From a virus (Duplodnaviria > Caudoviricetes), in IMG/VR virus record IMGVR_UViG_3300007171_000004, positions 64,001-128,000 of that record: DNA of 64,000 nt; one strand, written 5' to 3'. Under the pieces are notes generated by a model, which saw only the letters and a program-made list of their open reading frames with translations, did not search any database and was not told the DNA's origin. A program made the translations under genes and the position numbers. This document shows, in pieces, positions 16,834 to 40,265 of the stretch (the first letter of the stretch is position 1; every line of letters begins with the position of its first letter).

Positions 16834-17066
16834 GTGAAGATGTAAAACCTGAAGATGTAATTTACCATCTTGAGGCTGACACACCAGTGTTGACACAAAC
16901 TGAATATTGTGTAAAATATACTGGCGATTACAAAGCTTTAGATTTGGTAGAGGTATATCTTCAAAGAGATAATACACAATTTCCTATAGCTGCTTTTCCT
17001 GCATTTTTTGTAGCTACTGGAAAACATACACTGGAAGAGATGGATGGCAACAACACAAGCGTTTGA
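16830..17066 (+). CDS. Hypothetical protein (78 aa) bridging gyrA and the structural array
   Basis: ATGA overlap with gyrA, GAGG SD, 23-nt overlap with the next gene. Confidence 0.7.
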   Translation: MSEDVKPEDVIYHLEADTPVLTQTEYCVKYTGDYKALDLVEVYLQRDNTQFPIAAFPAFFVATGKHTLEEMDGNNTSV

Positions 17067-19539
17067 ATATAACTTTGATTCAAGCTGCACAATCACACCA
17101 CTAAATTCCGTTCCGAAGCCTGTAATTTCATTACAGGCTTTTGGAGCTTCAGGGTCTACAATTTATTCGTACAGAGTAAGTGCTATAAATTCCTATGGTG
17201 AAACATTAGCAAGTGATCCTGTTGTCATCACTGGAAATGCGATATTAAGTAATAGTAATTTTATTAGAATATCTTGGACATCAAGTAGTTATGCTACAAG
17301 CTATAAAGTGTATGGTAGGACCGTCAATTCAGAGCAACTTTTAGCTACTGTTAATAATAATTATTTTGATGACATAGGTATTAATACACCTAATGGAACT
17401 TTACCAGCGAAAGATACTACTGGCTATGATCCAAGTAAATTAAATATTGGCAGATTTCAAAAATTATTCACGAGCACAACTACTCCAGAAAATAATTATA
17501 TCTCAAATCAACCTCATGAAATGTTTCATTTTTTTGATGAAATGAGAGTGATATACAATTCCACTTCACCTCCATTGTTATATATGTATTATGCTAATGA
17601 TGTTATTAGCTATACCGAAAGATATGATTTATTAATATTTCAAAGAAACGAAGCAAGTGGAAGTCAAATACGAAAATATCACTTGGTTATTTTTGATAGA
17701 TTTACATGGACATTCACACATAAAGGTTTTATAAATATAACATTTGCATCATCGGGTCAATCAGCTTGGGATTTTGATCTTGTTGCAATAATGGATAAAA
17801 CTACAGATGGTCTAGTCAATTTATCCACATCAACTGCTGAAGTTTCAGGAATAAATACTACATTTTTTGATAAGAAAATTTCTGTTGGGGCTAGAATTGG
17901 TTTTGGTTCTACAGATCCAGAAAAAATTACTACCTGGTATTATGTAAATAGGATTAACAGTAACACAAGTTTAACAATTGATAGATTGCCATCTGTTAAT
18001 CAAACTAACGTCCCATATATAATCGAGGAAATTAGACTTATAATATTACCCAATCCTGGGTTTGGACTATATTTTATAAAAGGCTTAAATATTGATGATT
18101 TTACAATAAATGGTACTGTAACAATACCATTTGCAAATAGAACAGATAGACAAAAAGCCTCGTATAATATCAGAGAATCATTTGTACCTACATCTACAAA
18201 TACTTATTATGGTATGTGTGTAACTCCTATCAAAGATAATAATACACAATATTTGTATATCAAGCAAGTAGATAATAATAATGTAAACAATAGGACAAGA
18301 ATATTAAGATATAACATTCGCAAAGATTTATCATTAGATGCGGGTACAGATTATAGTTGTTTTGATTTTACAACTGGCCAATTATTAGTTAACTCTTGGG
18401 GAAATGCTTATGGGGGATTGTTTCATGTTGTTATGAAATCTGGACCATATGCAAATAAACCTTCATTAATTTATAGAGGTGTTGATTTTTTTATAAGAAC
18501 GGAAGAAAGTTATATTGTCAGGAATGCATTGAATATACCTGGTGAAACTTTTTTTATACCTGCAATAAACTATGGCAATAGAATTCAAGATTTTAGAAAC
18601 TCCTATAGATATGTTTATGATGATTACACTGATTTTTTTTATAACAGCTATAGCGGGTATGGATTTTCGGCATTTAAATTTCAATTTGCAAATGAATTAC
18701 AAGGATATTATGCTATAGGTGGGCAAAATTTATACACTCCAGGTAAATGGAATCCTAAAAATACATTTAATTATCCTTTTAATGGTTACAACAAAACATA
18801 TAACGCTAAAAATGGAATAATATATACTTTTAACATAAATACATCTGTCCAAGATCTAATACATAGTAATATATTCGCAATGCCTGTAGGTGGAGATAAT
18901 GAAACACCTATGGAATATGAAAACAGAGTAATTTGTCCTGAAATTGACACCCATTCAGTAAGTAAATTTAATAAATTATTAGTCAATTATGCTGAAGAAG
19001 TAGCCTCTGAAGATTTCCCAGTGCAACCTGATCCATTTAGAGTATTTTATAGAACAACTGGAATAAAAGATAATTCAGGTACATGGACTAGATTATATTT
19101 GCCTTATGATTTATCTACTGTTAGAGTTCAAGATTCTATACAATTCATGTTCAATTTCAAAATATTTGGATTATCAATGTGTCCTGCAAGAATTCATTCA
19201 TATACATTATTGGCAGAAAAAGAAGAATTGCTTCCTAAATATTTTAAATTCAACAATAATATTACAAATCTTTCTCAAAATATATATGGATTTGAGCAAA
19301 TTAAAGTATATCCAAATAATCTTACTTTAAAAATATCTTATATTAGAAAAAAAGATAATAAATTAGTATTTACTCAAACTTCTTCTGAAACTACTTTTGG
19401 TAATTTTCAATATTTAGCTCAAGGAAATATTTGGACAAATGGTATAGGCACAAATGTAGTAGGAACACTCAGAAGATTTGTATTAACTGCCAGTGTGTTA
19501 ATATCTGATGAAATTAAAATAAAGATAGAAATAGTATAG
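17044..19539 (+). CDS. Putative fibre/adhesin scaffold protein, paralog 1 (831 aa; core only)
   Basis: Fn3-like YSYRVSA.N..GET...W....YKVYGR; GARIGFGS..P..I..WY; PYIIEE.R; RT.GI.D.SG.W; C-terminal G.FQY...W.NGIG.N..G..RRF. These blocks are shared with five downstream genes. Confidence 0.75.
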   Translation: MATTQAFEYNFDSSCTITPLNSVPKPVISLQAFGASGSTIYSYRVSAINSYGETLASDPVVITGNAILSNSNFIRISWTSSSYATSYKVYGRTVNSEQLLATVNNNYFDDIGINTPNGTLPAKDTTGYDPSKLNIGRFQKLFTSTTTPENNYISNQPHEMFHFFDEMRVIYNSTSPPLLYMYYANDVISYTERYDLLIFQRNEASGSQIRKYHLVIFDRFTWTFTHKGFINITFASSGQSAWDFDLVAIMDKTTDGLVNLSTSTAEVSGINTTFFDKKISVGARIGFGSTDPEKITTWYYVNRINSNTSLTIDRLPSVNQTNVPYIIEEIRLIILPNPGFGLYFIKGLNIDDFTINGTVTIPFANRTDRQKASYNIRESFVPTSTNTYYGMCVTPIKDNNTQYLYIKQVDNNNVNNRTRILRYNIRKDLSLDAGTDYSCFDFTTGQLLVNSWGNAYGGLFHVVMKSGPYANKPSLIYRGVDFFIRTEESYIVRNALNIPGETFFIPAINYGNRIQDFRNSYRYVYDDYTDFFYNSYSGYGFSAFKFQFANELQGYYAIGGQNLYTPGKWNPKNTFNYPFNGYNKTYNAKNGIIYTFNINTSVQDLIHSNIFAMPVGGDNETPMEYENRVICPEIDTHSVSKFNKLLVNYAEEVASEDFPVQPDPFRVFYRTTGIKDNSGTWTRLYLPYDLSTVRVQDSIQFMFNFKIFGLSMCPARIHSYTLLAEKEELLPKYFKFNNNITNLSQNIYGFEQIKVYPNNLTLKISYIRKKDNKLVFTQTSSETTFGNFQYLAQGNIWTNGIGTNVVGTLRRFVLTASVLISDEIKIKIEIV

Positions 19540-19547: not shown

Positions 19548-20012
19548 ATGATCAATTATGGCGAATTAAGTAATGAAATTAATTTAGATCCTGAAAATTT
19601 AGGTTATTCTACTTTACTAGAGTTGGGCAATCATGTTGGTATTGCAGAAATATTAAACAACAAATATGTAGCTGGTGAAACAGTAATTAGCATAGATAAA
19701 TTAGAAGATTATATGTTAACCACTGGAAAAATATTATTAATTGAATCTGTTTCAAAGACAGATAATCCAGCTCAAAATGCAGCTCTTTTAATATTAAGAT
19801 TATTATCTTCTAGATTACAAACATTTAAATTTGAAGAACCAGCTGTACAAAATGTTTTAGATACGCTCATAGAAAACGAAGTAATTTCTGAACAGGATAA
19901 AATTGATATTTCAAACTTAGCCCCTAAAGAAATGTTATCGAGAGCTGAAATTTTATTTGGAAAAAATACCAGCATTACACACATAGATATTGGTAATGCT
20001 TTTAGGAGATAG
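19548..20012 (+). CDS. Hypothetical helical protein (154 aa) within the fibre cluster
   Basis: AGGTG SD; ELSNEINLDPENLGY N-terminus; function not assignable. Confidence 0.7.
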   Translation: MINYGELSNEINLDPENLGYSTLLELGNHVGIAEILNNKYVAGETVISIDKLEDYMLTTGKILLIESVSKTDNPAQNAALLILRLLSSRLQTFKFEEPAVQNVLDTLIENEVISEQDKIDISNLAPKEMLSRAEILFGKNTSITHIDIGNAFRR

Positions 20013-20014: not shown

Positions 20015-20434
20015 ATGAGTGCTTTAGGACCTGATTTTAGATTTTCTGTATATAATGGAACTGGACAAACAATTGCCTCTGGTGGAATTGTTGTTAAGTA
20101 TCGTGGATGGAAATATGCTAACGATGCATCAGTTGTTTTTGACGGATCTGCAACTGTACCTCTTAACTTAGGCGCAATTCCAGCATCCCCTACAACTTTA
20201 GTAAACACTGCTTATCTCAACTCAGCAGCTATTGATAATGGTGTGACTAAGTTAATTGGAGCTACGATTGAATTTACGGTTACAGCTCCAGCATCATCAA
20301 ATGGTGATGTTATTCTTTATATTGAAAGATCGCTTGACGATGGAACAACTTTTCCTGATAATGGTTTAGGCCAAGTTATTGCTATATTAAACTTCACAAC
20401 CTCTGGTACAAAGAGAAGAATCGTACATCTATAA
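20015..20434 (+). CDS. Small beta-rich virion-associated protein, copy A (139 aa)
   Basis: Clear paralog of 29631..30056 (TVTAPASSNGxVILYxERS.D.G...GLGQ...GTKR..VHL). Confidence 0.8.
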   Translation: MSALGPDFRFSVYNGTGQTIASGGIVVKYRGWKYANDASVVFDGSATVPLNLGAIPASPTTLVNTAYLNSAAIDNGVTKLIGATIEFTVTAPASSNGDVILYIERSLDDGTTFPDNGLGQVIAILNFTTSGTKRRIVHL

Positions 20435-23400
20435 ATGTTTCCAGGAAGTTCAGAATATAATTACAAACCTGCTCACGGCTCTTCTATTAATTGGAATCAT
20501 CCTTTAACAAATGGCCTTGTGCATTGTTTTTTATTTAATGAAAGATCTGGACTTCAAATTTTTGATCTTTGTGAAAAGCCTACTGTAGGAACATTAATTA
20601 ATGGTCCCATATTTTTTCCAAAAGATTATGGTTCTATATTTTTCGATGGAGTAAACGATTATATTGAACTTATTAATGATAATTATACTTTGCCGACTAC
20701 TGGATTATCTGTATTAGCTTGGTTTAGGACCTCTGTTACAGACAAATGGTTAATAGATAAATCAGGTGGAACATACGGACCTAATGGTTTTAATTTGTCA
20801 TGCGGTTCCGTTGGTGGAGTTGGTTTTACTGTTAATTCCGCACAATCCTATAGTACTGTCAATGTATGTGATGGTAACCTAAATTTTGCTTGTGGAACAT
20901 GGAGCCCTGGTAATTTTGTAAGAACATATGTAAATGCAAATTTAGCAATGGAAGTTACAGCATCTGTACCAACTGTTATAAATTCGCCGGGACATAATCT
21001 TAGAATTGGCAGAAGGGGCGGTGGAATTGACAATTTTTCAGGTCATATCTATCAAATTTATATATATAATCGACCTTTATCTGACGAAGAAATTAGATTT
21101 TTAGACGAGAATCCATTTGCATTTATCAACCCACCTGCTGCTTTAAAATACTATTCATATAGACAGCAAGGAATTTTATACGCACCTTCTATTGCATCAG
21201 CAGAATCTATGGGTTCTGCTATCATGCCTGGTCCTGTAACATTGGGCCTGAGTTCTATTTTATCTTCAGAATCATTTGGAAAACCTACTAATTCTTTAGA
21301 TACACCTGAAAGTGGATTATTAATAGAAAGTATTAGATTTGATAGTAAATTACCTGTAACAGATCTCAATGCTTTACTATCACCATCTATATCATCTGTA
21401 GTTCCTTTTGGCTCCACAGGATCAACAGAATATACTTATCAAATCAGTGCATACAATAAATTTGGAGAAACGTTACCATCATCAGTAGTTAAAATATCAA
21501 ATGGGAACAGTACTTTAGATTCCACAAATTACAACAGAGTTAAATGGACTAAAGTGCCAAAAGCAACAGGATATAGATTGTATGGTCGAACAGGAAATAA
21601 TATGAAATTATTAACTGACCTCTACAACAATTACTATGATGATATTGGGGTTACTTTACAAAATACAACTCCTCTATCAAAGAACACGTTAGGATACGAT
21701 CATAAAAAATTAAATGTATCAGAAGAACATTTTTTATTTACGGGTCCAAAATATTTAGATAATTATGTATCTATCAAACATAGATATGATTATAATCATG
21801 GAATAGTGCAGTTATATCCAGGTCTAGGAGAAGCTATTGCTTGGTCAGATGATATAACATGGATTCTTACAGATGAATCTAGAAACTGGACAGTATCCAG
21901 ATTACACTTACATATTTATGATAAAAGAACAAACACTATAGATTATGCTGGGAATGCATATGTAAATTACCCGACTACCCAAAACTTACAACCATATGAT
22001 AAACCATATGCAAGCTATACTGTAATAAATAATGGAACCGTATCTGTTTCTGGAACTACTGTAACTGGAACAAACACCACATGGAATGATCAAAAACTAT
22101 GTGTTGGATATAGAATAGGTTTTGGATCAGACACTCCACAATTTGTTACTGATTGGTATGAAATTGCTGCAATCAATTCTAATACGTCTATCACATTAAC
22201 AAATACAGCAAATTCTTATCCTGCAAACACACCTTATGTAATCGAAGAATTAATAATTGTCACAGCTAGACATAACAGTTCTGACTTCACTAAAGCTGGA
22301 TTATTTGTAGTAAAAGGTCTAAGCTATTTTGATTTCAATAATGAGAAGCAAACAAATATTCCAGCAGCAACCACTGTAGACAGAATTAAAGCAGCATATT
22401 ATTTAGACGATACTTTAAATCATTCTTATTGGTTTCCTAATTTTGTTTGTGGTCCTAAAGTTGATAATAATACACAATATGTCTATGTGGCTAGTTTAGC
22501 GAACAATAGTGGTTCAAATAATCATATATTAGTATTTAATTTAAGAGCTGATTTGACATCACTCAGTGCTGGAGTGTCTACTGCAGCTTTTATTGCTAGA
22601 AGTAATCCTTTTGTTACTTTACAATCCCCACCTTCTAATTCGGGTAAATTAACCTTAGCTACTACTTTATCTGGCGCTGGTAAAGATATAGAGTGTTTAT
22701 ATCTAGCTATCTATGGAAGAAATTATAGAATTCCTACAAAACCACTTTTAGTGCCAAATAATAACATAATAATATATGAATTTTCTGGTGTATTTGGTAA
22801 TGGAGGCTATACCGTGAGTGGTGGATGGTATAGTATGAGACACCAAAAATACCTACCTGAAGAAGATATGTTTTATGGTATGGAATATAGTTATGGACAA
22901 TTCTGTTTCTATAGATATAAGCCAGGTTTAAGAGATGCGATTAAACTCAAAAGAAAATATTATTCTGCTCATTATTCCTATCCACACAATAAGCTAGTTT
23001 ATGATGTAGGATATGATCATAACTGGTCATTAAACCCTGTCACACATATCGCAAACGGATCAATTTTTATCACTCGTGAAGGAACTGATCAATGGAATCC
23101 AGTGCAAGTTATCAGTTATAAAGCAGATGAATTATTCGCTAAAAAATATAATGCTTTTGTCATAACCCCAGCTATTAGTACCTATAATGCAAGAAAATTA
23201 TCTAAAATAATACTGTCTGATAATTTTTGCGAAGGCGATGATAGATTTACTAAATTACCTGCTGAGTATAATTTATATATTAGAACCGAAGGTATAGAAG
23301 ATAATACTGGTGTTTGGATACCCTTAAATCGAATGCATGATTTATCTGATATCAAAGCAACAGACAAATGCCAATTTAGATTTGAATTTGTTATGATGGC

Positions 23401-25861
23401 GCATTCTGCTATACCTCGTAAAATATTTAATTTAGATTTATTTTATGAAACAAAAAATATTATTTCACCAGAATTTAAATGGAATTTATCAGATTCTAGT
23501 ACTTTATATAATGTAGTAGGCTTTAAGCAAAAAGAACTATATAAAAAAGATTATGTATTATATGAATCTGAGCCATTAGTAGTAATCGAAGCCAAAGATG
23601 CAATAACTGGTAATATCATCTATACACAACGAAGCGATGATAACACATATGGACAATTCCAATACTATAATAATTCATGGATAAATGGCATTGGTCCTCA
23701 AGCTATAGAAAAAAGAATGAGATATGTCAATACTTATTCTTTCAATTCAACAGCAAAAATTATCTACAGCATTTACACCGCAAAATGGGATTTACTAAGA
23801 TTAGATAAAAGTAATAATAAAGATTTATCTGATTATAATAATACATTTATTTTAGATAATGTAGTAAGAAATACAGAAATAGATACTCCCTGGGTTTTCA
23901 ATGGTAATTCATCGATTACATTAAACTCACCAATATTTAATAAACTTTATAGCAATGGTTTATGTATGAGTATTACTTTTATAGTTAATGAAAACATTAG
24001 CTTTAGTAATATGAGTCTAATATCAAGAAATAATGGATCAACAGGTAATAATTTTTATCATTTATATATATCAAGTGATTATAAAATTAACTTCTGGATT
24101 GGAAATTCCAGCATTGTAGTTTCAGATGGAAATATTAAACCAGGATATATTTATAATGTTATTATTAACTTCACAGGTTCTAATTATTCACTATATATAA
24201 ACGGAAAATTAAACAAAACACAAAGTATTTCACCTACATTATCTTTGCTGTCTAGTAATTTGAAGATTGGTAATTCTGATTACTCAAATTCTGGTTTTAA
24301 TGGAAAAATCTATGAAGTTAGAATAATTGGTAAATCTGTAACAACTAACGAAATTTCAAGAATTTATTATGATGTAAATTTAAAACTTGACAATGAAATT
24401 ACCGGGCTCATAAGAAAAACATTACCTTCATCTATATATTACAGTGAAGGAACTATAACTATTGACTCTGGCACTTCGAATATTAATGTTCCAGGGCTTA
24501 GAGAAAGATTCTATCGTTTTTATGACCAGAATAGAGATTTTGATCATAATAATGGGGAGCTCATGAAAGATTATGAACATGTACATAATTTTGATTTAGC
24601 TTTTCATCAATCTATAACCGGTTACACGATTGATTATTATGGAAAATTTTTAGCTCCTTCAACTGGCTCATATACATTTAGTTATCAAGCCTGGGATATA
24701 GGTTACTTATGGTTAGGTCCATTAGCAGATAGCGGATTTACTAAAGCTAATAGAAATATATACACTAATACTGGCCTAAATACATATACTGTTAGCTTAA
24801 ATGCAGGAGAATATTATAGTATCAGAATTATGAATTCTGTATCAAGTACGAGAAGAATGCTTGTAACAATATCTGGCCCTGGTATCACAACAACATCTGA
24901 TTTTTATAACTATTTCTCTACTCCATATAGCAACAGAAAAACCCTGACAGGCACAGGCACTTCATTCATCAATAATGTTCCTTTTTCAAGAAACACAATT
25001 TTCTTAGGTTCCAGATCTATTTATGATAATGTAGAGGCTGTAGAAGTAACAAAAGCATTATCTAATACTAAATTAGCATTTAATACTTTACCAAATAAAA
25101 TTTATGGTTCAAATATCGAATATGCTGTTCTAAAAAATGTAGTGCTATATTTAGATGCTTCCGAAAAGAAATCTTATCCTGAATCTGGAAATATTTGGTA
25201 TGACTTAAGTGGATTTGGAAATCACTTTCAATGTAATGGGCATGTCGAATGGAATAAAGCTGGTTATTTTACATCATTTTCAATTAATGATTATTTTACT
25301 CCAGTAGCTGCTAATACTCTTGCTAAATCTTATCCATTTTATAATCAAGATTTCACTGTGTTTTTTGTAATAAGAAACCAGACTACACCTAACAGTTATG
25401 CCATATCAGATGTCTTTATGTACTTATTGCAAGGATCTTATAATCCTGTATATGGATATTATGGAAGAGGAACAGAATTTTTTTATAATGGCAACAGTAG
25501 GTATTACACAACTAGTGATAACTATCAACAAACTTATTCAGCTCCAAGATTTTATGTAGAAAATTATGATGAAAACACAGTAATGACTTTTTCTTACAGC
25601 AATACATCTAACTCTAATAATATATATGGTTATGAAAGATTTAGAATGTACAAAGACGGGCAGAAATTTTTATTGACTTATAGACCTAATACAACATTGG
25701 AAACATTATTTGGATTTTTCTCTATAGGTAATTCTTCTGCTTATCCTTATTATCCAATTAATGATGCGAAGATATATGCTGTAATGGTTGTAAATAGAAC
25801 AATGTCAGATGCAGAAGTGTTGGAAATGTCAAACTATTTTAGAGATAAATTTAATTTTTAG
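20435..25861 (+). CDS. Putative fibre/adhesin protein, paralog 2 (1808 aa): LamG + scaffold + LamG/PA14-like/LamG extension
   Basis: N-terminal NHPL.GL..C.LFNE cap and FDGVNDY concanavalin/LamG motif; shared scaffold; YYGKFLAPSTGSYTF PA14-like block; LYLDASEKKSYPESGNIWYDLSG LamG start. Confidence 0.78.
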   Translation: MFPGSSEYNYKPAHGSSINWNHPLTNGLVHCFLFNERSGLQIFDLCEKPTVGTLINGPIFFPKDYGSIFFDGVNDYIELINDNYTLPTTGLSVLAWFRTSVTDKWLIDKSGGTYGPNGFNLSCGSVGGVGFTVNSAQSYSTVNVCDGNLNFACGTWSPGNFVRTYVNANLAMEVTASVPTVINSPGHNLRIGRRGGGIDNFSGHIYQIYIYNRPLSDEEIRFLDENPFAFINPPAALKYYSYRQQGILYAPSIASAESMGSAIMPGPVTLGLSSILSSESFGKPTNSLDTPESGLLIESIRFDSKLPVTDLNALLSPSISSVVPFGSTGSTEYTYQISAYNKFGETLPSSVVKISNGNSTLDSTNYNRVKWTKVPKATGYRLYGRTGNNMKLLTDLYNNYYDDIGVTLQNTTPLSKNTLGYDHKKLNVSEEHFLFTGPKYLDNYVSIKHRYDYNHGIVQLYPGLGEAIAWSDDITWILTDESRNWTVSRLHLHIYDKRTNTIDYAGNAYVNYPTTQNLQPYDKPYASYTVINNGTVSVSGTTVTGTNTTWNDQKLCVGYRIGFGSDTPQFVTDWYEIAAINSNTSITLTNTANSYPANTPYVIEELIIVTARHNSSDFTKAGLFVVKGLSYFDFNNEKQTNIPAATTVDRIKAAYYLDDTLNHSYWFPNFVCGPKVDNNTQYVYVASLANNSGSNNHILVFNLRADLTSLSAGVSTAAFIARSNPFVTLQSPPSNSGKLTLATTLSGAGKDIECLYLAIYGRNYRIPTKPLLVPNNNIIIYEFSGVFGNGGYTVSGGWYSMRHQKYLPEEDMFYGMEYSYGQFCFYRYKPGLRDAIKLKRKYYSAHYSYPHNKLVYDVGYDHNWSLNPVTHIANGSIFITREGTDQWNPVQVISYKADELFAKKYNAFVITPAISTYNARKLSKIILSDNFCEGDDRFTKLPAEYNLYIRTEGIEDNTGVWIPLNRMHDLSDIKATDKCQFRFEFVMMAHSAIPRKIFNLDLFYETKNIISPEFKWNLSDSSTLYNVVGFKQKELYKKDYVLYESEPLVVIEAKDAITGNIIYTQRSDDNTYGQFQYYNNSWINGIGPQAIEKRMRYVNTYSFNSTAKIIYSIYTAKWDLLRLDKSNNKDLSDYNNTFILDNVVRNTEIDTPWVFNGNSSITLNSPIFNKLYSNGLCMSITFIVNENISFSNMSLISRNNGSTGNNFYHLYISSDYKINFWIGNSSIVVSDGNIKPGYIYNVIINFTGSNYSLYINGKLNKTQSISPTLSLLSSNLKIGNSDYSNSGFNGKIYEVRIIGKSVTTNEISRIYYDVNLKLDNEITGLIRKTLPSSIYYSEGTITIDSGTSNINVPGLRERFYRFYDQNRDFDHNNGELMKDYEHVHNFDLAFHQSITGYTIDYYGKFLAPSTGSYTFSYQAWDIGYLWLGPLADSGFTKANRNIYTNTGLNTYTVSLNAGEYYSIRIMNSVSSTRRMLVTISGPGITTTSDFYNYFSTPYSNRKTLTGTGTSFINNVPFSRNTIFLGSRSIYDNVEAVEVTKALSNTKLAFNTLPNKIYGSNIEYAVLKNVVLYLDASEKKSYPESGNIWYDLSGFGNHFQCNGHVEWNKAGYFTSFSINDYFTPVAANTLAKSYPFYNQDFTVFFVIRNQTTPNSYAISDVFMYLLQGSYNPVYGYYGRGTEFFYNGNSRYYTTSDNYQQTYSAPRFYVENYDENTVMTFSYSNTSNSNNIYGYERFRMYKDGQKFLLTYRPNTTLETLFGFFSIGNSSAYPYYPINDAKIYAVMVVNRTMSDAEVLEMSNYFRDKFNF

Positions 25862-25863: not shown

Positions 25864-28800
25864 ATGTTTAATAATAAATCAAAAATCAAACCTTCTTTAG
25901 GATCAACAATAGATTTCAATCATCCTCTTTCTCAAGGACTGATGGGATGCTGGCTATTTAATGAACAAACTGGAAATAAGATTTATGATTTGGCAAATAA
26001 ACATGATGGTACAGCTTATAATGGACCTACTAGAAATAATTCATATGATGGTTTTTATTCTTTTGATGGAACTAATGATTATATACAACATACACCTAGA
26101 AGCAAAAATCTAGAATTTCAATACAATACACCGTTCACTATTCATGTTTTTGCTAGAGTCAGGACTGCTGTTTCAGGAACAGGGTACATTATAACAAATC
26201 GTGGGGTTGATGGTAGTGGCATCCCTTATTCAGGCTGGGGCATAGCTAGAACTGGCAATACGATCATGACTTTGATTGGTGGATATACAGGGACAACATG
26301 GCAGATAAACACAATTTCAGAATCTGTATTTTCAAATTATATAGAAAATAAATGGGCTTCCATCACTTATGTAAATACAGGTATTACAGGACAGCAAAAA
26401 ACATATGTAAATGGTATCAATAAATCAGCTGGAGTAGCTTCAAACGATGCATATATAATCAATTATGAAAATAGCAATAATCCATTAAATTTTGCAAGAT
26501 CTGAAGCTGATGGGCCTGGTCATTATTTAAACTGTGATATATCTTATGCCTATATATACAATAGAGCTTTATCTGCTGAAGAAGTATTGTCGCTTTATGA
26601 ACAACCTTATCAATTCATAAATCCTCCAGCAGCTTTAAATTATTATTCTTATTCACAACATAGATCTTTAGCAGCCCCAAGTATCAAGACAGAAGAAAAG
26701 TTGCCAGTATTAAATACATTCAATCCAATAACTTATAAAAATGTATCAAGTATAGTCAAAAATGTTAAGGATTTTGAATTTAACCAATCTACACAATATA
26801 CAAGATATTCTGTTATAGATAAACCATCAAATGTGTCTATAACCAATTTTGGAACTGCTGGATCTACATCATATTCATATAGAATTAAAGCTATAGATGA
26901 ATTTAGTGAATCGATAGCAACAGACTCAATAATTACTACTACTGGCAATTCTACTTTATCAACAAATAATTTCAATAGAATCAAATGGAATTGGGTTGAT
27001 GGTGCTACTAGTTATAAAATATATGGAAGAATAAATGGTAGCGAACAATTACTAACAACTACAATTTATAACCATTTTGATGACACGGGATCTATAACTC
27101 CTAATGGAACTCTTATAACAAGCGCTTCGGGTGGATATGATTACAAAAAGTTAACATTAGGAACTTATTATTCTTTATTTACTGGAACAAATAAAGAAGA
27201 TAATTATGTCAAGCTTAAAGATTTTGATATAGCTAGACCTAAATATGACAGTGTTTATCAAGCTCAAGATGTTTATTGCTATATCATGGATGTAGCTGCT
27301 TGGTCTGATGATATTAATTATATTGTACTAGATAGACCTTCTACAGGTAATCCAAGAAGATTTGCATTATATAAACATTTTAAGTCAACAGGTAGAATGT
27401 CATACGTAGGAGATATTGGCTTAACAGGATCCTATGGTATTACAAATTTAAAAATAGCTATAACGAGATATTCCACTGGTACTGTTTCTGCTTCAGGAAC
27501 TACTGTAGCGGGAGTGAATACAGCTTGGAGAACTGCTAATTTTTCTAAAAATTCAAGAATAGGTTTTGGTACTACAGAACCTCATTTAGTTGATAAATGG
27601 TATTACATTACAGATTTGCCTTCGGATACATCTCTTACTGTATCTGTTACTATCTCAGAAAATATACCTGCTAATACACCTTATGTTATTGAAGAAATGC
27701 GAATCGTGTTTCATACAACAACTAATCTATATTTAATCAAAGGTGTTACAGAAAATGACTTTTATATTGGTAAATCATATGCACCAACCTTAACAGAATC
27801 TATTGGAGCTAATATTTACAATTTATCTAACCCTTCTATACTTGGCACTATATTTGCGATGCCTTTAAAGCCCATGGATGATTATAATACACAATATGTA
27901 TATTGTGTATACTATATTGGAACTTCTAATGTCATAGGTATTAAAAAATATAACATAAGACAAACTATGACTATATCATCACAAACATTACCTGGTTTCG
28001 CTAAATATGAATTTTCAGGTTATTTTGCTGATAATATAAATTTTATTAATAGTAATATTCCAATTTATGGTGGAAATTTTAATACAATTAATTTAGGACT
28101 TAACTTACCAGCTTGGACATATCACTATTATGGATATATAAACATCACTACACCAGGTTCATACACATTTTATTTAAGATCTGATGATGCAAGTTATTTT
28201 TGGATTGGAGCAAATGCTGAAAGTGGTTTTACGACTGCTAATGCTTTTTTATCAGAACCTGGCAGTCATGGAGTATATGAAGTAAGTGCAAGTATTACTT
28301 TATCCGCTGGGCCAATATTTTTAAGATTAATTTGTGGTGATGTTGGGGGTGGTGGAGGAATTTATTTAGAATATGCTGGACCAGGAATTTCAAGGACATT
28401 TGACTTTTCTTTACTGGGTGCATATTCTACAGTATCAACATTTGCGGACTCTTTAGTGCTAACTTGTGGAGGAACTATTCCTATTGCAAACCGTGATAGG
28501 TCTTTAATGAATGGTGAATTTTGCACTCCTAGACATGGAATTTATAAAGACACCCCTGTAATTATATTTACATCAACAAATGGCATTACTGTTATCAAAG
28601 ATTCTGATATTTATGCTAATAATATAGAATTATTTACGCATAGTTATCCTTTAGTATTTATGATTCCAAATATAGATCCATTATTATTTCAAAGTAGAAA
28701 TTATCAAGATAATATTGGATATGATTCATTATTAGACAGAGTGATTTATCCTCCTTACAGTTATTATCTCTTAAAAGGTTATATTTCAACATTAGGTAAT

Positions 28801-33000: not shown

Positions 33001-34540
33001 TACTAGTGATAAAATCCAATTTAAAATTATGTTTAAGACTATTGGAGGTTCTGGAATTTACGCCAGAATTCATAGTTTAACAGTCATATACAATCGAGAT
33101 TCGAGTTTTGATTTAAAATTTGATACAAAAAACACTTTAGCTAATAATAATACAATATACCTAAATCAAAATCAAATGCTGAATAAAGCATTACCATATA
33201 CTATTGATATTTACAATAATGATACTCTTTATGCAAGTCAATCGTCTGAAAATGTTACATATGGAAAATTAGAAACATATACAAATTTATGGACTACAGC
33301 GCAAATTTCAGACAAATCAAATAGTAAAAAAATAATTAATACTAATAATGTTTTTATTTCATCACAAAAGAAAAATAGTGTAAATTCTGTTTATTTTAAT
33401 AACAGTTATATAGCTACAAATAATTCAAATGATTTCAATTTTGATTCTGATTTTCATATTGAGTTTTTCTACAAACCTTTCTCATTGTCTGATTTTGGTG
33501 GATCGTCTTTTAGAATTTTGAGTTTTGGTGGATCAGGAAGAGATGCAGGATGGGAAATTGGAAAAGAAACAATTTCGAGTATAGATAAGCTAGTATTTTA
33601 TATCGGAAATAGTAGTGCAAACACATTTATTGAAATTTGTAATATATCTGAACTTTTGAATAACTGGAACAGAATATCAGTCTATCGAAGAAGTGGAGAA
33701 ATCTGCACATTTTTAAATGGAACAAGAAAAAGTAAAGTTACAAATACTACAATTTTCAATAATATCACTAACACCTTAAATATAGGTTGTGGAAATATAT
33801 CTAATTCAAATTCTTATATGAAAGGTTATCTAGATAATCTATTTATATTAAAAGGATATGCTTTAAATTCATTACAAACTCAAGTGATACCGCCTGATGG
33901 AAATAGCATTGTGGGATTTACAAGAAAAACATTTGGAAGCTATTGGGGTGGCAATTTATCATTTTTCAAAACTAATTTACCTACAGCTACAACAGTAGTT
34001 ACTAATATGAATGATAATGCTGTACCAACATTCACTAGTTATGAATTTTTCGGTTATTTATATGCACCTTATGATCAAACAGTTACGATTTCTTTAGCTA
34101 ATGATGATGAAGGTAGATTATACGTTGGTCCTGCAGCATTAGAAGAGAATTATTCAGCAGCAAACTCTTTAATATATTTTGCATCAGCATCTAGCACACC
34201 AGTATTTGCATCCTATTATGCTACTGCGGGCTATCATCCTTTTAGAATTCTTACTGGAAATAATGGTGGTCCAGGATATTGTCTTGTAACTATTAATGGT
34301 TTTTATGATGTGAGCAATTTTATATACACATCTCAACAGATTGGAGTTACTGACTATTTCTTGTTAGATACTAAAATATATACACAATGGAATAATTTTA
34401 GAAATAATTCCTTTAGTAAATATTGTGTATTGCATTTAGATTTTAAAGATGAAACAAATTATACAGGAGTTAAAAGAAGATTCGTTTTTAATACAGGAGT
34501 TTTAGATTCTTTAGGGAAAGTAAAAATTAAGATAAGATGA
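30056..34540 (+). CDS. Putative fibre/adhesin protein, paralog 4 (1494 aa): LamG + scaffold + LamG/PA14 inserted in the terminal module
   Basis: LamG cap; shared scaffold; FHIEFFYKP...MKGYLDNL LamG-like block; YEFFGYLYAP...LANDDEGRLYVG PA14; ends GVKRRF. Confidence 0.78.
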   Translation: MLDYSQYNYKPPLGSTLNTNHPLSTHLMAGYLFNENGGNIAYDFSGNGNHGVLKNGASFLNNSLFLDGLNDYVEVPDANSLSSPSAISIFFRVNSSDVQTRWNDVLGKGVSDTDEELGFWFINTQSYFDLGYPYAATNIGYNNNTWYTFANTFQKTASSAIIQMAYNGIIRSLWQSGNFNYSITPNAYPLTIGKRWYNSDPNSRTFKGYIDYVMIFNKALTDSEIRSLHENPYQLVDTPSSYKYYAPLNNQLKTASIPSAEKLGNHIFPGKITISSPSISSSENFGNSKMNLNNLLEPKLSSRIDFDLNIKTTNYLPILSPNNITSEVFGTTGSTQYLYKISSCNDDGESLPSNIITINNGNSTLSTSNFIRLTWDLYDFATYYKIYKLVDNKYQLLYVSRDANHFDDVGQTTLSEEPKSINTTGYHPNKLNLGKYIKLYTDKINKSKNYLSTISNQAFYSGYYYATSSAFMIDAFKYSNDITWLFTNQNNNSNYNTIGLYEHNTKTDDKYFKGRVYLPRPNNYYDDFFKVSVDRHTTGTISATGSTVTGTNTLWVTNRIAIGARIGFGSKDASLIKTWYQITAISSDTSITIAEVLQNNIPANTPYIIEEIRFIQNLTQTNLVAANNGIFITKGVNYNFFDLNNFSVPMATTIDNQRATYILSDAMTSTMYNPALAFLGPKIDNQTQYMYVMISNTSSNLRGSIYKFNIRASLSGLSSGRSTSGYLYKTLEVDHSPLNVMGRDLRIGCFANVNHSTGKGVNSLYYHYDNRFLYRVPEYSIENGKNYIFERATVVTTVNDETIVLASYVDMSYDPFTDKFLMGRYNSYRQAHRCEILEFSPTNRPSDGYLGFGGGHGLYRDTMDDTIRPNSYSALRNNIRQYGVSFEGIYYRSDQNAIYPEIYCADYTLADKFKCFAITPIISCPDNVGFDKLQVEYDDYLGDLEQGITADTFKIYARTSGMIDDTGTWTLLSDSKNLSSFSTSDKIQFKIMFKTIGGSGIYARIHSLTVIYNRDSSFDLKFDTKNTLANNNTIYLNQNQMLNKALPYTIDIYNNDTLYASQSSENVTYGKLETYTNLWTTAQISDKSNSKKIINTNNVFISSQKKNSVNSVYFNNSYIATNNSNDFNFDSDFHIEFFYKPFSLSDFGGSSFRILSFGGSGRDAGWEIGKETISSIDKLVFYIGNSSANTFIEICNISELLNNWNRISVYRRSGEICTFLNGTRKSKVTNTTIFNNITNTLNIGCGNISNSNSYMKGYLDNLFILKGYALNSLQTQVIPPDGNSIVGFTRKTFGSYWGGNLSFFKTNLPTATTVVTNMNDNAVPTFTSYEFFGYLYAPYDQTVTISLANDDEGRLYVGPAALEENYSAANSLIYFASASSTPVFASYYATAGYHPFRILTGNNGGPGYCLVTINGFYDVSNFIYTSQQIGVTDYFLLDTKIYTQWNNFRNNSFSKYCVLHLDFKDETNYTGVKRRFVFNTGVLDSLGKVKIKIR

Positions 34541-37500
34541 GCACTTACCCTTCATACAGACCTCCAATTGGTTCTACAATTAACTACAACAACCCCATTA
34601 CACATGGCTTGATAGCTTGTTACCCTTTTAATGATCAAATGGGTAATATTGCTCATGATCTGGTATCACAAAGAAATTTATCTTTAATTAATGGGCCTAC
34701 GTGGACAGCAGCAAATGGTGGTGGATTATCATTTGATGGGAGCAATGACTATGCTGAAAACGGAAGAATATTTATTCCATTTAATTCGTTAACATTTTCT
34801 ATTTGGGTATTTAAGCCAGTAACATTTGAAAGTGCATATAAAAAGATAGTTGTAATTGGAGATGCTGGTGGTAATGTTTCGCTCTATCTTTCGCAAGGAC
34901 CAGGACCTCAAATTTATTTTGGAATAGGTACAACTTCAGGACAAAACGGGCCTTTTTTAAATACTGCTTTAGCTGCAAATACTTGGCATCATTTAGTAGG
35001 TACATGGAATGGATCTGTAGTTAAATTATTTATAAATGGTAAATTTGTTAATCAAATAAATTACGCTGGAACATGGCCTGGAGGATATAGAAATTATCCA
35101 TTACGTGTAGGCTGGGGATATAGTGCAGAATATTTTAACGGGACAGTAAGAGATTTATTAATATTCGATAGAGCTTTAGACGCAGGTGAAGTTCAAAGCT
35201 TATATGAAAATCCAAAATCTGTTTACGCTGAACCTATTTCTTATAGTTTACCAGTCACTAATTATAGAATGTTAGGAGCTCCATCAATTGGTACAGGAGA
35301 ATCATTTGGAAACAACTATCTAAATGGTCCGATTCGATTCTACTTAAATTCTATCCAAGCTCCAACAGTTCCGCAAAATATCAATATTAAAAAGAATAAT
35401 GTTCTTAAATTATCTAACAAAAAATCAAAAATTTTAGAGTATGATTTTAATAAAGAAACACAATTTGCTAATTACAAATCTTTAGACAATCCTATTTCAT
35501 CTGTAGAAGTATTTGGTACAACAGGATCAACAATTTATTCATATAGAGTTACAGCATATGATAGCTTTGGTGAGTCTACATCTAATCAAGTAATTATAAA
35601 TAATGGAAATAATGTTTTAAATTCTTCTAATTTTAACAGAATAACATGGAAACCAATAAGAAATGTTATTGGATATAAAATATATGGCAGAACAAAAGAT
35701 AATGAAAGATTTTTAGCAACAATAACTAATACAAATTATTATGATGATATTGGATCTGCTACACCAACAATATTATTTCCATCAGTAAATACATCTGGCT
35801 ATAATCCGAATAAATTAAACTTAGGTCCTCTAATTAAAAAATACACAGGCGATAAACACTATGATAATTTTATTGGACCTAGAAAAGTTTATCACATTCC
35901 ATTAGATTATATTGGTAACTGGACTGATTTAATAAGAGTTTTTGAATATAATGATGATTTCAATTATATATTGACTTATTATTCATCTAGTGCTGGGCAA
36001 ATTAGACTATTATATTTATTTAAATTTTTCAAAAAAATAGATGAGTTTTTATATGTAGGTAGATTAGACTTGAATTTAAGTCCAACATCTAGTATGAGTA
36101 TCTACGGAAACCCTTTGGCTGAATTATATTATCATAATAATGGAACAGTATCAGTATCAGGAACATCAGTAACTGGCGCAAATACTACATGGGTGTCTGA
36201 TAGAATAGCTGTTGGCGCAAGAATAGGCTTTGGATCTACAGAAGCAAGATTCATCACAATATGGTATGATATTACTGCTATCAATTCAAATACATCAATA
36301 ACAATAAATACATCAGCTGGAACTATTAATTCCAATACTCCTTATGTCATAGAGGAGTTAAGAGTTATGATGTCTTCTAGGCAAACGGTGTCTCCTTTTA
36401 ATCAAGCTGGATTATATATAGCTAAAGGATTACACTTCGGATTATTTAGAATTTATTTGGGTAATTCAGTTCCTATGGCTACAACAGTAGATAATCAAAG
36501 AGCTGTATATAGATTAACTCATCCTACTACTCCTCCAAATGATATGTATATTGGTACGGATGAAAAATATACAAATACCACACATTATGTATATGGTAAT
36601 AATTATATTACTACACGTACTAACAGATTTTATAAATTTAATGTCAGGGCAGCATTGACAGATCTAGTTGCTGGCACATCTACACTAGCGGCAGTAGCAA
36701 TGACTGCTAATGTAAGCAGTAATAATAATCAAACATCTCATCTAACAAGAGTACATACTCCTAAATCTGGCCCTTATGCTGGAAGAAATATTATGCTCAC
36801 ACCGGATAGTAGCTGGTTATATGTTATAGATGTAGATAAAATAAAGAATTTTGCCACTGATATTTATTTAGATAGAACAAGATATATACGTTTAGGTGGT
36901 GACAACTATGCAGCTTTAGAAACAAGAAGTAGTCCAGAATTAAACTGTTATGATAATAATTTAGACTTATACTTTGGAACTATAACTAGACAGTCATTTT
37001 TGTATAGGTTCGAAAATTTAATTAACATAAGTACTTCAGAAAGAATGAGTTCTAATAATGCTGCATCAGAACATGAGAGTATGATCTATAAATATCCATT
37101 AAATGGAGATTATAATTATATTTGGAATTTGCCCGTGTATCAAATATCTGATGAAGGTTTGCATTATATGACAGCGAATAATCAAGGTAGAAAAAACAGT
37201 GTGCTAATATGGCCTTTATACGCTGAATCAAACATAGCTGAATTAACTAAAAATAGATTAGTTTTACCTAAATTTTCTACTATAAATGCTACATTATTTA
37301 AAAAAGTATATGTGCAAAATTCCCTAAACTTATATGATGAATCATTTGGAATTAGACCGGATCCATACAAAATATATGCAAGAACTATGGGTATTGATGA
37401 TGATTCAGGGAAATGGACTTTAATAGAAAATAATGATATGTCTGCAATTCAACCAGCTGATTATATTCAATTTATGTTCGAATTTAAAGTGATGAAAAAA

Positions 37501-37860
37501 ATTATGGTGTTTGCAAGATTATATTCATTATCTATGTCATATGAAACAGATGAATATTTGCCAAAAGAACTTACTTTTAATTTACAAGATACAGATTTAA
37601 ACAACAACGTGATTGGCTTTAAACAAAAATTCTTATTTGAATCGTTAAATTATTTAGCTATAGAAATTTATGACAAACAGAATGATAATTTAATATTCAA
37701 ACAATTAAGTACAGAAACAACATTTGGTAATTTTCAATATTATAATAATGGATGGGTCAATGGCATAGGAGCTAATATTATTGGAACTAGAAGAAGATTT
37801 ATAGTAACTGCATCTATGCCTAATACTTCATATAAAATAAAAATTTACAGAGGAATATAA
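34537..37860 (+). CDS. Putative fibre/adhesin protein, paralog 5 (1107 aa): LamG + scaffold
   Basis: LSFDGSNDY and WHHLVGTWNG LamG motifs; shared scaffold; ends NGIGANIIGTRRRF. Confidence 0.78.
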   Translation: MSTYPSYRPPIGSTINYNNPITHGLIACYPFNDQMGNIAHDLVSQRNLSLINGPTWTAANGGGLSFDGSNDYAENGRIFIPFNSLTFSIWVFKPVTFESAYKKIVVIGDAGGNVSLYLSQGPGPQIYFGIGTTSGQNGPFLNTALAANTWHHLVGTWNGSVVKLFINGKFVNQINYAGTWPGGYRNYPLRVGWGYSAEYFNGTVRDLLIFDRALDAGEVQSLYENPKSVYAEPISYSLPVTNYRMLGAPSIGTGESFGNNYLNGPIRFYLNSIQAPTVPQNINIKKNNVLKLSNKKSKILEYDFNKETQFANYKSLDNPISSVEVFGTTGSTIYSYRVTAYDSFGESTSNQVIINNGNNVLNSSNFNRITWKPIRNVIGYKIYGRTKDNERFLATITNTNYYDDIGSATPTILFPSVNTSGYNPNKLNLGPLIKKYTGDKHYDNFIGPRKVYHIPLDYIGNWTDLIRVFEYNDDFNYILTYYSSSAGQIRLLYLFKFFKKIDEFLYVGRLDLNLSPTSSMSIYGNPLAELYYHNNGTVSVSGTSVTGANTTWVSDRIAVGARIGFGSTEARFITIWYDITAINSNTSITINTSAGTINSNTPYVIEELRVMMSSRQTVSPFNQAGLYIAKGLHFGLFRIYLGNSVPMATTVDNQRAVYRLTHPTTPPNDMYIGTDEKYTNTTHYVYGNNYITTRTNRFYKFNVRAALTDLVAGTSTLAAVAMTANVSSNNNQTSHLTRVHTPKSGPYAGRNIMLTPDSSWLYVIDVDKIKNFATDIYLDRTRYIRLGGDNYAALETRSSPELNCYDNNLDLYFGTITRQSFLYRFENLINISTSERMSSNNAASEHESMIYKYPLNGDYNYIWNLPVYQISDEGLHYMTANNQGRKNSVLIWPLYAESNIAELTKNRLVLPKFSTINATLFKKVYVQNSLNLYDESFGIRPDPYKIYARTMGIDDDSGKWTLIENNDMSAIQPADYIQFMFEFKVMKKIMVFARLYSLSMSYETDEYLPKELTFNLQDTDLNNNVIGFKQKFLFESLNYLAIEIYDKQNDNLIFKQLSTETTFGNFQYYNNGWVNGIGANIIGTRRRFIVTASMPNTSYKIKIYRGI

Positions 37861-40265
37861 TGGCTATCGAAAGTATAGATTTTACATTTGATTCTAGCTT
37901 AAATTATAGAAATTATATTCCTGCAAAAGCACCAACCTTATCTAGATATGATAATATTGGAACTCCTGGAAATACATCTTATAGCTACAAATTGTCTTTA
38001 GTTAATAATGATGGTGAATCTGATTTATCAGACGAAATTATTACCTATAACTCTAATTCAGTGTTATCATCATCAAATTACGTAAGAATATTTTGGAATC
38101 AATCTGAGCTAACCAATTATTACAAATTATATAAATTAGTTAACGGATCTTATGTATTTTTAGCTAATATTTATGATCACTTACATTATGATGATATTGG
38201 AACAACACCTAGCTCAATTAATCATCAAGGATATAATTCAACAGGATATGACCCATCATATGTAAATCTTGGATATCTAATGTATAGGTACTCCGGTGCA
38301 AATAAATATGATAATTATGTATCACCCTTAAGATTAGAACATATATTTCATGGTGCTAATTATTATAACAATACATTTAGTTATTTATTTAAAGTAATAA
38401 GATATACAAAAAATTTAGATTATTTATTTACAACAAACACGTCAAGTACACAAAATATACAATACATGATTTATAATCGCAAAGAAAATAAATTTTATCA
38501 AGGTGGCGTAGTTTATATATTTTTCCGTGGCACTACAAATATGTATATATATGATGCTGATATAAATGTAGAAAGCTCATCTGATGGATATGTAACTGTT
38601 TCAGGAAATACAGTCACAGGTACAAATACTAAATTTAATTCTTCTGGATTTAGTGTTGGTAGTAGAATAGGCTTTGGTTCCACAAACCCTGAAGCTATAA
38701 CAGAGTGGTATGAGGTAGCATCTATTATTTCAGATACTTCATTAACCCTAACAGAAACATTAAGTAAAACTTACCCTCCTAACTCACCTTATATCATTGA
38801 AGAAGTGATAATGTTAAGTGCAAATTATTGGAATACCAGTCCTTATAACTTAGGTGGTGTTTATATAACAAAAGGCATGAATTTTACATTCATGAAACAT
38901 AATAACACAGTTCCTTTTGCCACTACAGTAGATAGAATTAGAGCTACATATAGAATAATTAATTCTGGAACGAATATTATTACTTATGCTGGTTCGTTAG
39001 TATCATTGCCAAAAGCATCTAATAATGAACATATTTTTTATGCATCTATCGAACAAGGTAATACATTAAGAATCGCATGTTTTAATGCAAAAGCTCCTCT
39101 AACTCTAGTAGCAGGAGAGTCAACAAGTGCTTTAAAATTCATCACGAAAAGTTATGATTGTATAAATACAGCTGATGGTTTAAGAATGTTCTGTTTACCT
39201 TTTGGACCTGGAAGAAATAAATATTCTATATATTTCAGAAGTGGAGGTGCAAGTGTATTACAAAGAATAGATTTAAATGATCTTAAACAAGATGCTGATT
39301 TATTTGGGCAAGATCATGGATATGTAAGACCAATAGCTAATGCCTACAGAGGTTTTAGCTTAGTTAATCCTTCTAATGCAAGATATATCCCAAATCTAGA
39401 ACAAGTGTTATTTTCAGCAACAACAAATACTGTAATGCCATATGATACAAATTATCCATACTACTATAATGAGTTTGGAGAAGTTAATTATGAAAGTTCA
39501 GATTACAGAATGCCTTCTAAAGATACTGTATCACACTTAAAAGAAAGTTCAAACTTTAATATTTCAGATGGGCTTTGGTATTATGTAGCAAACAGTTATA
39601 AACTAGGCGTATTTCCGGGAGAAGCTGATTGGAGATTTGCTTCAAGAAATAATGCAAGAATTATTACTCATTCAATCGATACTAGTCATATAACAAAATT
39701 CAATAAATTATTAGTACATCATCCTGAAGTATTAGGAAGTCATGATTTAGGGTCGATGCCTGAACCATTTAGAGTTTACTTCAGAACAGAAGGTATATCA
39801 GATGACTCAGGAGATTGGTGTCTATTAAATGATTCTTTTGATATGTCATTTATAACTCCAAAAGACAATATTCAATTTATGCTTGAATTCAGAATATTAG
39901 GCAGAGCATCTGTTCCTAATAGAATTTATGGTTTATCAATATCGTATTTTGTTGATGAAGATTTACCTACAGGATTTGAATGGAATTTATATGATTCAAA
40001 TGCATCATCATCAATTATAGGATTTGAACAAACAAGTGTATTGAATACTTTAGGCAATTTTAAGATTACATATTATTTATCAGAATCAGATGAAGAAGTA
40101 TTTACAGCATACAGTACAGAAAATATAAATGGTTCTTTTCAATATTGGAATGGATCATCTTGGATAAATGGTGTTGGACCTAATATGTTTGGAACTAGAA
40201 GAAGATTTGCAGCTTCACATTATTTACCAAGCACTGATGTATATGCTAAAATTGCTTTAGTCTGA
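37860..40265 (+). CDS. Putative fibre/adhesin scaffold protein, paralog 6 (801 aa; core only)
   Basis: Same architecture as 17044..19539 (GSRIGFGS.NP, ATTVDR.RA.Y, PEPFRVYFRTEGISDDSG, NGVGPNMFGTRRRF). Confidence 0.75.
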   Translation: MAIESIDFTFDSSLNYRNYIPAKAPTLSRYDNIGTPGNTSYSYKLSLVNNDGESDLSDEIITYNSNSVLSSSNYVRIFWNQSELTNYYKLYKLVNGSYVFLANIYDHLHYDDIGTTPSSINHQGYNSTGYDPSYVNLGYLMYRYSGANKYDNYVSPLRLEHIFHGANYYNNTFSYLFKVIRYTKNLDYLFTTNTSSTQNIQYMIYNRKENKFYQGGVVYIFFRGTTNMYIYDADINVESSSDGYVTVSGNTVTGTNTKFNSSGFSVGSRIGFGSTNPEAITEWYEVASIISDTSLTLTETLSKTYPPNSPYIIEEVIMLSANYWNTSPYNLGGVYITKGMNFTFMKHNNTVPFATTVDRIRATYRIINSGTNIITYAGSLVSLPKASNNEHIFYASIEQGNTLRIACFNAKAPLTLVAGESTSALKFITKSYDCINTADGLRMFCLPFGPGRNKYSIYFRSGGASVLQRIDLNDLKQDADLFGQDHGYVRPIANAYRGFSLVNPSNARYIPNLEQVLFSATTNTVMPYDTNYPYYYNEFGEVNYESSDYRMPSKDTVSHLKESSNFNISDGLWYYVANSYKLGVFPGEADWRFASRNNARIITHSIDTSHITKFNKLLVHHPEVLGSHDLGSMPEPFRVYFRTEGISDDSGDWCLLNDSFDMSFITPKDNIQFMLEFRILGRASVPNRIYGLSISYFVDEDLPTGFEWNLYDSNASSSIIGFEQTSVLNTLGNFKITYYLSESDEEVFTAYSTENINGSFQYWNGSSWINGVGPNMFGTRRRFAASHYLPSTDVYAKIALV

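Follow-up and report, generated by a model that had tools for sequence, protein, structure and literature searches.

A six-gene array of paralogous proteins with a shared propeller scaffold and varied lectin domains in an uncultured freshwater jumbo phage

Why should a large phage keep six related genes side by side, all coding for the same protein scaffold and four of them adding lectin domains to it? The question is raised by an array at positions 17044–40265 of a 64,000-nucleotide (nt) stretch of DNA (the window), which corresponds to bases 64001–128000 of the 300.5-kb IMG/VR virus record IMGVR_UViG_3300007171_000004, an uncultured freshwater jumbo phage estimated to be 84% complete. Six open reading frames (ORFs) of 831, 1808, 1255, 1494, 1107, and 801 amino acids (aa) are packed tightly there in one orientation. 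A preliminary description of the locus, made from the letters alone, had proposed an undescribed family of co-displayed or interchangeable fibres, in which one scaffold carries different lectin payloads. The shared scaffold with its varied lectins and the undescribed family are upheld by the present analysis, while the interchangeability and the fibre form are not. The reading favored here, which we hold with slightly better than even confidence, is that the array codes for six different, co-displayed, glycan-binding surface proteins of the virion, which form a fixed set and are built on a docking scaffold.

All-against-all BLASTP links every pair of the six proteins (26–40% identity, E 1e-15 to 1e-140), and the MAFFT alignment of their shared core of about 800 aa contains 63 invariant columns. 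The paralogy of all six is borne out by both comparisons, and homology far beyond chance is confirmed at the sequence level. The ordered blocks noticed in the preliminary description fall in the invariant columns, namely G129-Y130 (TGY.P.KLN.G), R269-I-G-F-G273 (GxRIGFGS), P310-Y-x-I-E-E315 (PYxIEE), the A362/Y364 region (ATTxDxxxAxY), R642..G645..D648..G651..W653 (RTxGIxDDxGxW), W768, and the terminal RRRF.

The domain scans agree with the picture of one scaffold with different lectin payloads. By Pfam, an N-terminal LamG domain is present in each of the four inner copies and PA14/GLEYA in three of these, whereas both outer copies are bare. The gathering cut-offs are 27.6 bits for LamG_3 (Laminin_G_3, PF13385), 26.2 for GLEYA (PF10528), 24 for PA14 (PF07691), and 25 for Fn3 (PF00041). 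The N-terminal LamG_3 scores 108.4, 61.0, and 76.7 bits in the 1808-, 1494-, and 1107-aa copies, respectively, and 41.5 bits in the 1255-aa copy when its N-terminus is scanned alone. Further LamG domains are found in the 1808- and 1494-aa copies, the C-terminal ones scoring 63.5 and 36.5 bits, and the 1808-aa copy ends in a LamG-like stretch of ~250 aa, which begins with the motif that marks the LamG repeats in the neighboring giant gene (BLAST E 2e-8). GLEYA is above its cut-off in all three copies that have it (49–50.6, 39.8–44.9, and 31–33.6 bits in the 1808-, 1255-, and 1494-aa copies). The PA14 model itself gives 17–24.1 bits, and reaches its cut-off only in the C-terminus of the 1808-aa copy scanned alone.

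The added domains occupy several different sites. Paralog 1 (P0001, 831 aa; 17044–19539, +) and paralog 6 (P0006, 801 aa; 37860–40265, +) are bare cores. In the four inner copies the shared site lies ahead of the Fn3-like unit with which the scaffold begins, and paralog 5 (P0005, 1107 aa; 34537–37860, +) has this addition only (LamG aa 67–220, core aa 300–1104). In paralog 2 (P0002, 1808 aa; 20435–25861, +), the N-terminal LamG (aa 71–220) and the core (aa 297–1115) are followed, after the complete core, by LamG (aa ~1193–1308), GLEYA/PA14 (aa 1397–1467), and the LamG-like end (aa ~1563–1808). In paralog 3 (P0003, 1255 aa; 25864–29631, +), with LamG at aa 68–241, the core is split (aa 303–706 and 873–1254) by a PA14/GLEYA insert (aa ~726–836) inside the propeller, the profile match being divided at positions 406/421. 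In paralog 4 (P0004, 1494 aa; 30056–34540, +), with LamG at aa 68–225 and the core at aa 304–1091, a second LamG (aa ~1115–1266) and GLEYA (aa 1330–1413) are inserted ahead of the last two strands of the core. Orthologues of this copy conserve its final 29 residues (aa ~1466–1494, GVKRRFVF...KIKIR), which align with the C-terminal ends of the other cores. To our knowledge, lectin domains inside a propeller loop or before the last strands of a scaffold have not been described. No obvious hydrophobic leader is seen by eye at the N-termini of the six translations.

The fold of the scaffold was predicted with AlphaFold2 from the bare 801-aa copy and 40 aligned relatives. The monomer model is all-beta, with a mean predicted local distance difference test score of 87 and a predicted template modelling score (pTM) of 0.80. 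It consists of an Fn3-like sandwich (aa 1–115), a propeller (aa ~155–595) into which a five-strand domain of 75 aa is inserted (aa 242–316), and a C-terminal beta-sandwich region (aa ~600–801). The Fn3-like unit of the preliminary description is therefore seen as a beta-sandwich in the model, but it is sub-threshold as Fn3 by sequence, with a best score of 18 bits (E 0.0034) in the N-terminus of the 831-aa copy and no Pfam Fn3 match in the other five. The propeller is best matched by six-bladed folds. A pTM this high speaks for a predicted structure that is compact and globular, with several domains, and not for an extended, intertwined fibre or trimer, and the description of the proteins as fibres is not borne out by such a monomer. 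Propeller-bearing receptor-binding proteins of the intertwined-trimer, stalk-bearing class include Gp45 of Staphylococcus phage phi11. The endosialidase propeller tailspikes of phi92 and K1F are likewise intertwined trimers with stalks, some with known catalytic residues, in contrast to the compact scaffold model, which has merely 8% identity to them.

The inserted 75-aa domain is the only part of the core with a PHROG match, to the N-terminal part of the tail-fibre families 1591 and 1980. It is present two to four times in some family members of 886–1035 aa, and, because it recurs at different places of the propeller, the propeller is, as far as the sequences tell, a general platform for grafted domains. 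One copy of the domain (GSVST...ARIGFGSTNPSAITTWF) also occurs in a 1278-aa protein of the same genome (G000:C1:144773-148606, -; equivalent to L094:774-4607). This protein has tail-fibre-like HxH motifs and an NHL-like C-terminus, gives no match in PHROG and Pfam scans, and probably serves the phage as a genuine tail fibre or baseplate component.

The claim that the scaffold is undescribed is supported by searches with the core, for which neither a Pfam family nor a whole-length PHROG was found; a profile of the six cores was also without a match among PDB sequences (E up to 1). INPHARED records gave no match by tblastn with the 801-aa copy or a 712-aa relative, a profile search of Bacillus phage G was also without match, and IMG/VR yielded no close relative to a single-protein query with the 1494-aa copy. 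The family is nonetheless a large one. Of 1.84 billion cluster representatives searched by profile, 2,628 were matched at E up to 1e-3, and 290 of these at E up to 1e-30. Most of its members are about 700–720 aa long (~712), single-copy, and without the Fn3-like unit.

The genomic context of these smaller relatives was surveyed in 80 parsed IMG/VR loci with one family copy each. In most of them a second gene starts 0–5 nt past the scaffold stop (for example L009:12139-13890 and L024:12079-12381). The first ~55 aa of this partner are conserved (M-x-L-x-x-G-G...L-V-R-D-x-G-T...V-Q-G-F; 32 distinct N-termini were retained by a loose motif filter), and the remaining 80–583 aa are unrelated between phages. 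Some C-termini consist of triple WIKVSGVWK repeats and others of long Ala/Ser/Thr repeats of 500 aa. The partner matches no Pfam or PHROG family. Such a pairing of a constant N-terminal end with a variable rest is the classic mark of a protein that docks on a constant part of the virion and meets the host with its other end. The genome under study has no such partner, since the hidden Markov model (HMM) of the partner N-terminus found nothing better than E 1.2 among all its ORFs.

The scaffold gene follows the portal gene in one 57-kb phage and stands behind the head genes in two others, a 38.6-kb record (61% complete) and a complete genome of 94.7 kb; the loci in which it comes after head genes are L009, L061, and L072. 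Collagen-like tail-fibre genes are immediately upstream of it in L019, L031, and L047, and a tail sheath gene lies about 2 kb downstream of it in a complete 171.7-kb genome (G008). The setting among tail or fibre genes is thus seen in these relatives and not in the window, where the array is flanked by gyrA and by a giant gene with LamG repeats. The carrier phages differ in their portal and capsid families (phrog_113/phrog_29 versus phrog_6547/phrog_11589), and for this reason the scaffold module is taken to move between phage lineages, as accessory host-recognition modules do. In L019 (155-6780), genes for sugar-modifying enzymes (methyltransferase-like, FabG-like reductase, and Zn alcohol dehydrogenase family) lie directly upstream of the tail-fibre and scaffold genes.

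The favored reading may now be stated in full. From the patterns above and the conservation of the array, we infer a place on the virion, a docking role, joint display, and glycan binding. Through the scaffold each protein would be attached to the virion, the tail or neck side being the likeliest place, and the scaffold would present LamG and PA14/GLEYA at either terminus, from a loop of the propeller, or ahead of its final strands. Most phages would pair a single scaffold of ~712 aa with the separate partner, which would bind it by the conserved N-terminus and reach the host with the variable C-terminus. The partner is absent from this jumbo clade, where the scaffold would have been multiplied six-fold once, long ago, with the binding modules fused on. 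The six proteins would be produced and exposed jointly, each of them specialised and none redundant in the binding of host surface polysaccharide.

The nearest solved structures raise the question of whether the scaffold is instead a true podovirus-type nozzle of the T7 gp12 / P22 gp10 class, lining the DNA exit channel. Nozzle chains are near the top of the Foldseek PDB ranking by E-value, headed by the LME-1 nozzle (9efk_M, E 6.9e-8; PMC12407071) and followed by those of Kp7, A4, and T7, and both BFVD and Atlas return 'stabilisation protein' and Phage_nozzle clusters. There is a likeness in outline, in that T7 gp12, P22 gp10, and 9efk_M are virion proteins which, like the scaffold, are all-beta and of ~800 aa, with domains inserted into a central propeller, and the fibre-like gene with a conserved N-terminus that follows the scaffold gene in most relatives recalls the docking of fibres, such as T7 gp17 on gp11/gp12. 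Nozzles are built of a platform, a seven-bladed propeller, a fibre-dock, and a nozzle-tip, and form part of short, non-contractile tails as a hexamer around the DNA channel. The present scaffold differs from them in several respects. The template modelling (TM) scores to the PDB nozzle chains are merely 0.13–0.18 (at most about 0.4 in Atlas), the best propeller matches are six-bladed, lectin domains are added, and the six proteins have no match to the Pfam models PF25675 (Phage_nozzle) and PF11134 (Phage_stabilise) at E up to 0.01. A six-frame search of the genome under study with PF25675 was empty, and its control also gave no signal. Family members also occur beside unrelated head modules, in up to six copies per genome, and in two genomes (G008 and G007) that encode a tail sheath above cut-off (PF04984, PF17482); for members in such phages the sheath genes rule out the identity of a podovirus nozzle. 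In the genome under study, Pfam sheath models found no match in the 84% available, by which its tail type is not settled. Overall, we regard a true nozzle as extremely improbable.

The history of the array was examined in a maximum-likelihood tree of 56 cores. The six window proteins fall in six separate clades, with support of 97–100 in the SH-like approximate likelihood ratio test (99 for the clade of paralog 1), and other metagenomes contribute three to six orthologues to each. Taken jointly, these clades are split from the single-copy proteins with a support of 100, and the branching order among the six is unresolved. The gene order, including the small genes within the array, is kept in relatives that are merely 40–50% identical (L091, L092, L095, and L098). 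L095 has the order 155-139-1818-1240-140-1487-1107-798 aa, and L092 is alike; L091 has 141-1664-1104-800 aa, followed by a giant LamG gene, and L098 has gyrB-gyrA-78-831-154-139-1809. The six orthologue clades and the order kept in diverged relatives point to one old six-fold expansion followed by specialisation, rather than to cassette swapping. At least four studies, with metagenomes from estuaries, freshwater, and rivers, contain DNA of the array at 85–99% identity, and no RNA run is listed among the public runs with this DNA. Contigs of four runs that seemed to offer structural variants span the array, and their joints of 21–39 nt on one side link homologous places of the paralogs, so that they were not accepted as variants.

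The orthologues retain their domain architecture, and their lectin and core domains diverge equally. In the 1808-aa type, for example, the lectins are 69–75% identical and the core domains 65–80%. The sole exception is the N-terminal LamG of the 1255-aa type (window 25864–26613, +), which is 45% identical, with gaps, to its closest orthologue, compared with 71–90% elsewhere in the protein, and this suggests local replacement or fast change there. Ten close orthologues of the 801-aa copy differ at 259 evenly spread sites, without a hot spot. Lectins that keep pace with the core, architectures that stay the same, and the lack of a hypervariable patch do not agree with the idea of interchangeable proteins. 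The alternative offered with it, that all six are displayed together, is plausible, all of them being kept as separate clades and in the same order.

The number of copies is exactly six, and four diverged lineages have kept every one of them in the same order, which may also be read differently. The six paralogs could form one hetero-oligomeric, pseudo-six-fold ring or collar at the neck or baseplate, in which the scaffold is mainly architectural and the lectins are secondary. The family has copy numbers of 1, 3, and 6 per genome, the nearest structures by Foldseek and by shape are the hexameric podovirus nozzles (PMC12407071), and the even divergence is what would be expected of a structural part. 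The three-copy case is a tandem array of Fn3-bearing proteins of 816, 838, and 813 aa without lectins, at 470812–478111 of a complete 478.8-kb genome (G006; IMGVR_UViG_3300044957_000763), and it is independent of the six-copy array. The argument from copy numbers, however, is numerology without a stoichiometry, the TM-scores to the nozzles are as low as given above, and in L096 the fifth copy is shortened. At L096:7903-10989 this fifth-type gene codes for merely 675 aa, with about 1 kb without a called gene ahead of it, and it may be truncated or disrupted. A ring of this kind is rather unlikely in our estimate. A more specific version, in which the six are subunits of a tail-axis ring (collar or baseplate rim) descended from a homo-oligomeric, nozzle-related propeller and each position has its own lectin set, seems distinctly improbable; if it were true, the host-binding face would be rotationally asymmetric by design, with programmed symmetry breaking of a kind rarely met in phage tails.

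The small genes within the array bear on another alternative. Two of them, encoding beta-sandwich proteins of 139 aa (20015–20434, +) and 141 aa (P0126; 29631–30056, +), are paralogs of each other (52% identity, E 1e-47), and each has an Asp-box (S-x-D-x-G-x-T-W/F), which is S-x-D-x-G-x-T-F in the former and S-V-D-G-G-A-T-W in the latter. They stay ahead of the 1808- and 1494-aa types, respectively, in all relatives seen (the 139-aa gene in L092, L095, and L098), and they belong to the array, in which they may serve as assembly aids, adaptors, or decorations. Their identity with the partner of the small phages was considered and rejected because the partner HMM gave nothing better than the E of 1.2 mentioned above. 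The model of the 141-aa protein matches a viral cluster (TM 0.69/0.82 over 108 residues, root-mean-square deviation 1.7), 14% of whose members have PF21190, Bbp16, the capsid cement protein of BPP-1 (PMC3863775). The scaffold could therefore be a head decoration, held on the capsid perhaps through these jellyroll-like proteins, and its lectin coat would keep the particle in polysaccharide-rich surroundings. The match of a 1662-aa protein upstream of the array to head-decoration PHROGs, and the position of the family gene after head genes in the three loci named above, are in favor of such a role. On the other hand, Pfam gives no Bbp16 match in the small proteins (E up to 1), and both the inserted domain and the neighbors in other phages are related to tail fibres. 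The family of small proteins was also compared with a 145-aa 'head protein' of L009, with an hhalign probability of 0.3%. Head decoration is, on balance, unlikely.

The propeller might also be an enzyme (a glycosidase, lyase, or esterase), with the lectins as its carbohydrate-binding modules and the array as a set of polysaccharide depolymerases, either bound to the virion or free. A propeller joined to carbohydrate-binding modules is an architecture typical of glycan-active enzymes, and several polar residues are invariant across the family (K338, D358, R642, and D648). Most invariant columns, however, are Gly or aromatic, Pfam shows no catalytic family, and non-enzymatic NHL and WD propellers match the model equally well. 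We consider the enzymatic role decidedly unlikely.

Several observations weigh against surface display on the tail side for host binding. The even divergence and the lack of variable patches are unusual for fast-evolving receptor-binding proteins. The array lies at least ~40 kb from the tail-side genes seen in the genome, and is directly preceded by gyrB-gyrA without a gap and without a conserved promoter of its own. The jellyroll-like sandwich predicted for the small proteins weakly resembles capsid cement proteins and so hints at the head rather than the tail, and the propeller can equally be that of an enzyme.

The remaining genes in and around the array may be described briefly. The six large genes had been placed correctly in the preliminary description, which overlooked three small genes inside the array and an ORF at its head. 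The third small gene encodes 154 aa (19548–20012, +) and is unrelated to the other array genes; it has no match in family searches, and its place is kept in relatives, with orthologues of 154–155 aa in L095, L098, L099, and L100. The ORF at the head of the array (78 aa; 16830–17066, +), read from the sequence, overlaps the ATGA of the gyrA stop at one end and paralog 1, by 23 nt, at the other. It is called and conserved in L098, L099, and L100 with mostly synonymous-type changes, is without a Pfam or other family match, and is translationally coupled to gyrA via the ATGA. A sigma-70-like TTGACA-16-TAAAAT at 16890–16917 was considered as a promoter of the array and rejected, its first hexamer not being conserved in relatives. 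Further upstream, the GTG listed as the start of gyrB (12140) falls within a terminator-like hairpin (12134–12160, +; 11 pairs and a T-run). Because gyrB of one relative has 708 aa and not the 723 listed here, the true start probably lies downstream of the hairpin. Other neighbors in the window are giant surface-type proteins with PHROG virion or head-decoration matches and seven LamG domains. The LamG hallmark motif LYVNAFSKDSYPGTGNVWYDLSG of the giant gene downstream of the array is found at 40276–40714 (+), ahead of the first canonical start (TTG, 40714), which supports a beginning of this gene further upstream, at a non-canonical codon.

How much of this system is new may be judged from the systems that it resembles. 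Large phages may have sets of several receptor-binding proteins, such as TSP1-4 of CBA120, paralogs that are encoded side by side and thought to be co-displayed, as is proposed here. Such arrays are described as either fast-shuffling or docked by short shared N-terminal tags, whereas the six-gene array is old and fixed in order and content, with a scaffold of 800 aa. In jumbo phages, the occurrence of LamG3 lectin domains on tail fibres and on further parts of the virion has been described before (PMC7824862), and LamG_3 and GLEYA are above threshold here and PA14 mostly just under it; the difference from typical LamG/PA14 proteins lies in the graft sites within the propeller loop and before the last strands of the scaffold. 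What is already known, therefore, is the presence of LamG lectins on jumbo-phage virion proteins and of side-by-side paralogous binding proteins. The new elements are the scaffold family, its two-gene form, the ancient, fixed, fused form with six copies, and the several graft sites.

The scaffold defines a large unnamed family of thousands of phage proteins from lakes, rivers, and estuaries, with a confident fold and without a Pfam family, a whole-length PHROG family, or a sequence-related solved structure. Since grafts are tolerated at four or more sites, it is of interest for display engineering. The family appears to offer two solutions to one task, a scaffold with a variable partner in most phages and six fused, specialised copies in the jumbo clade. 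It thereby gives a testable picture of how large phages may build a complex and stable host-binding surface without the swapping of cassettes.

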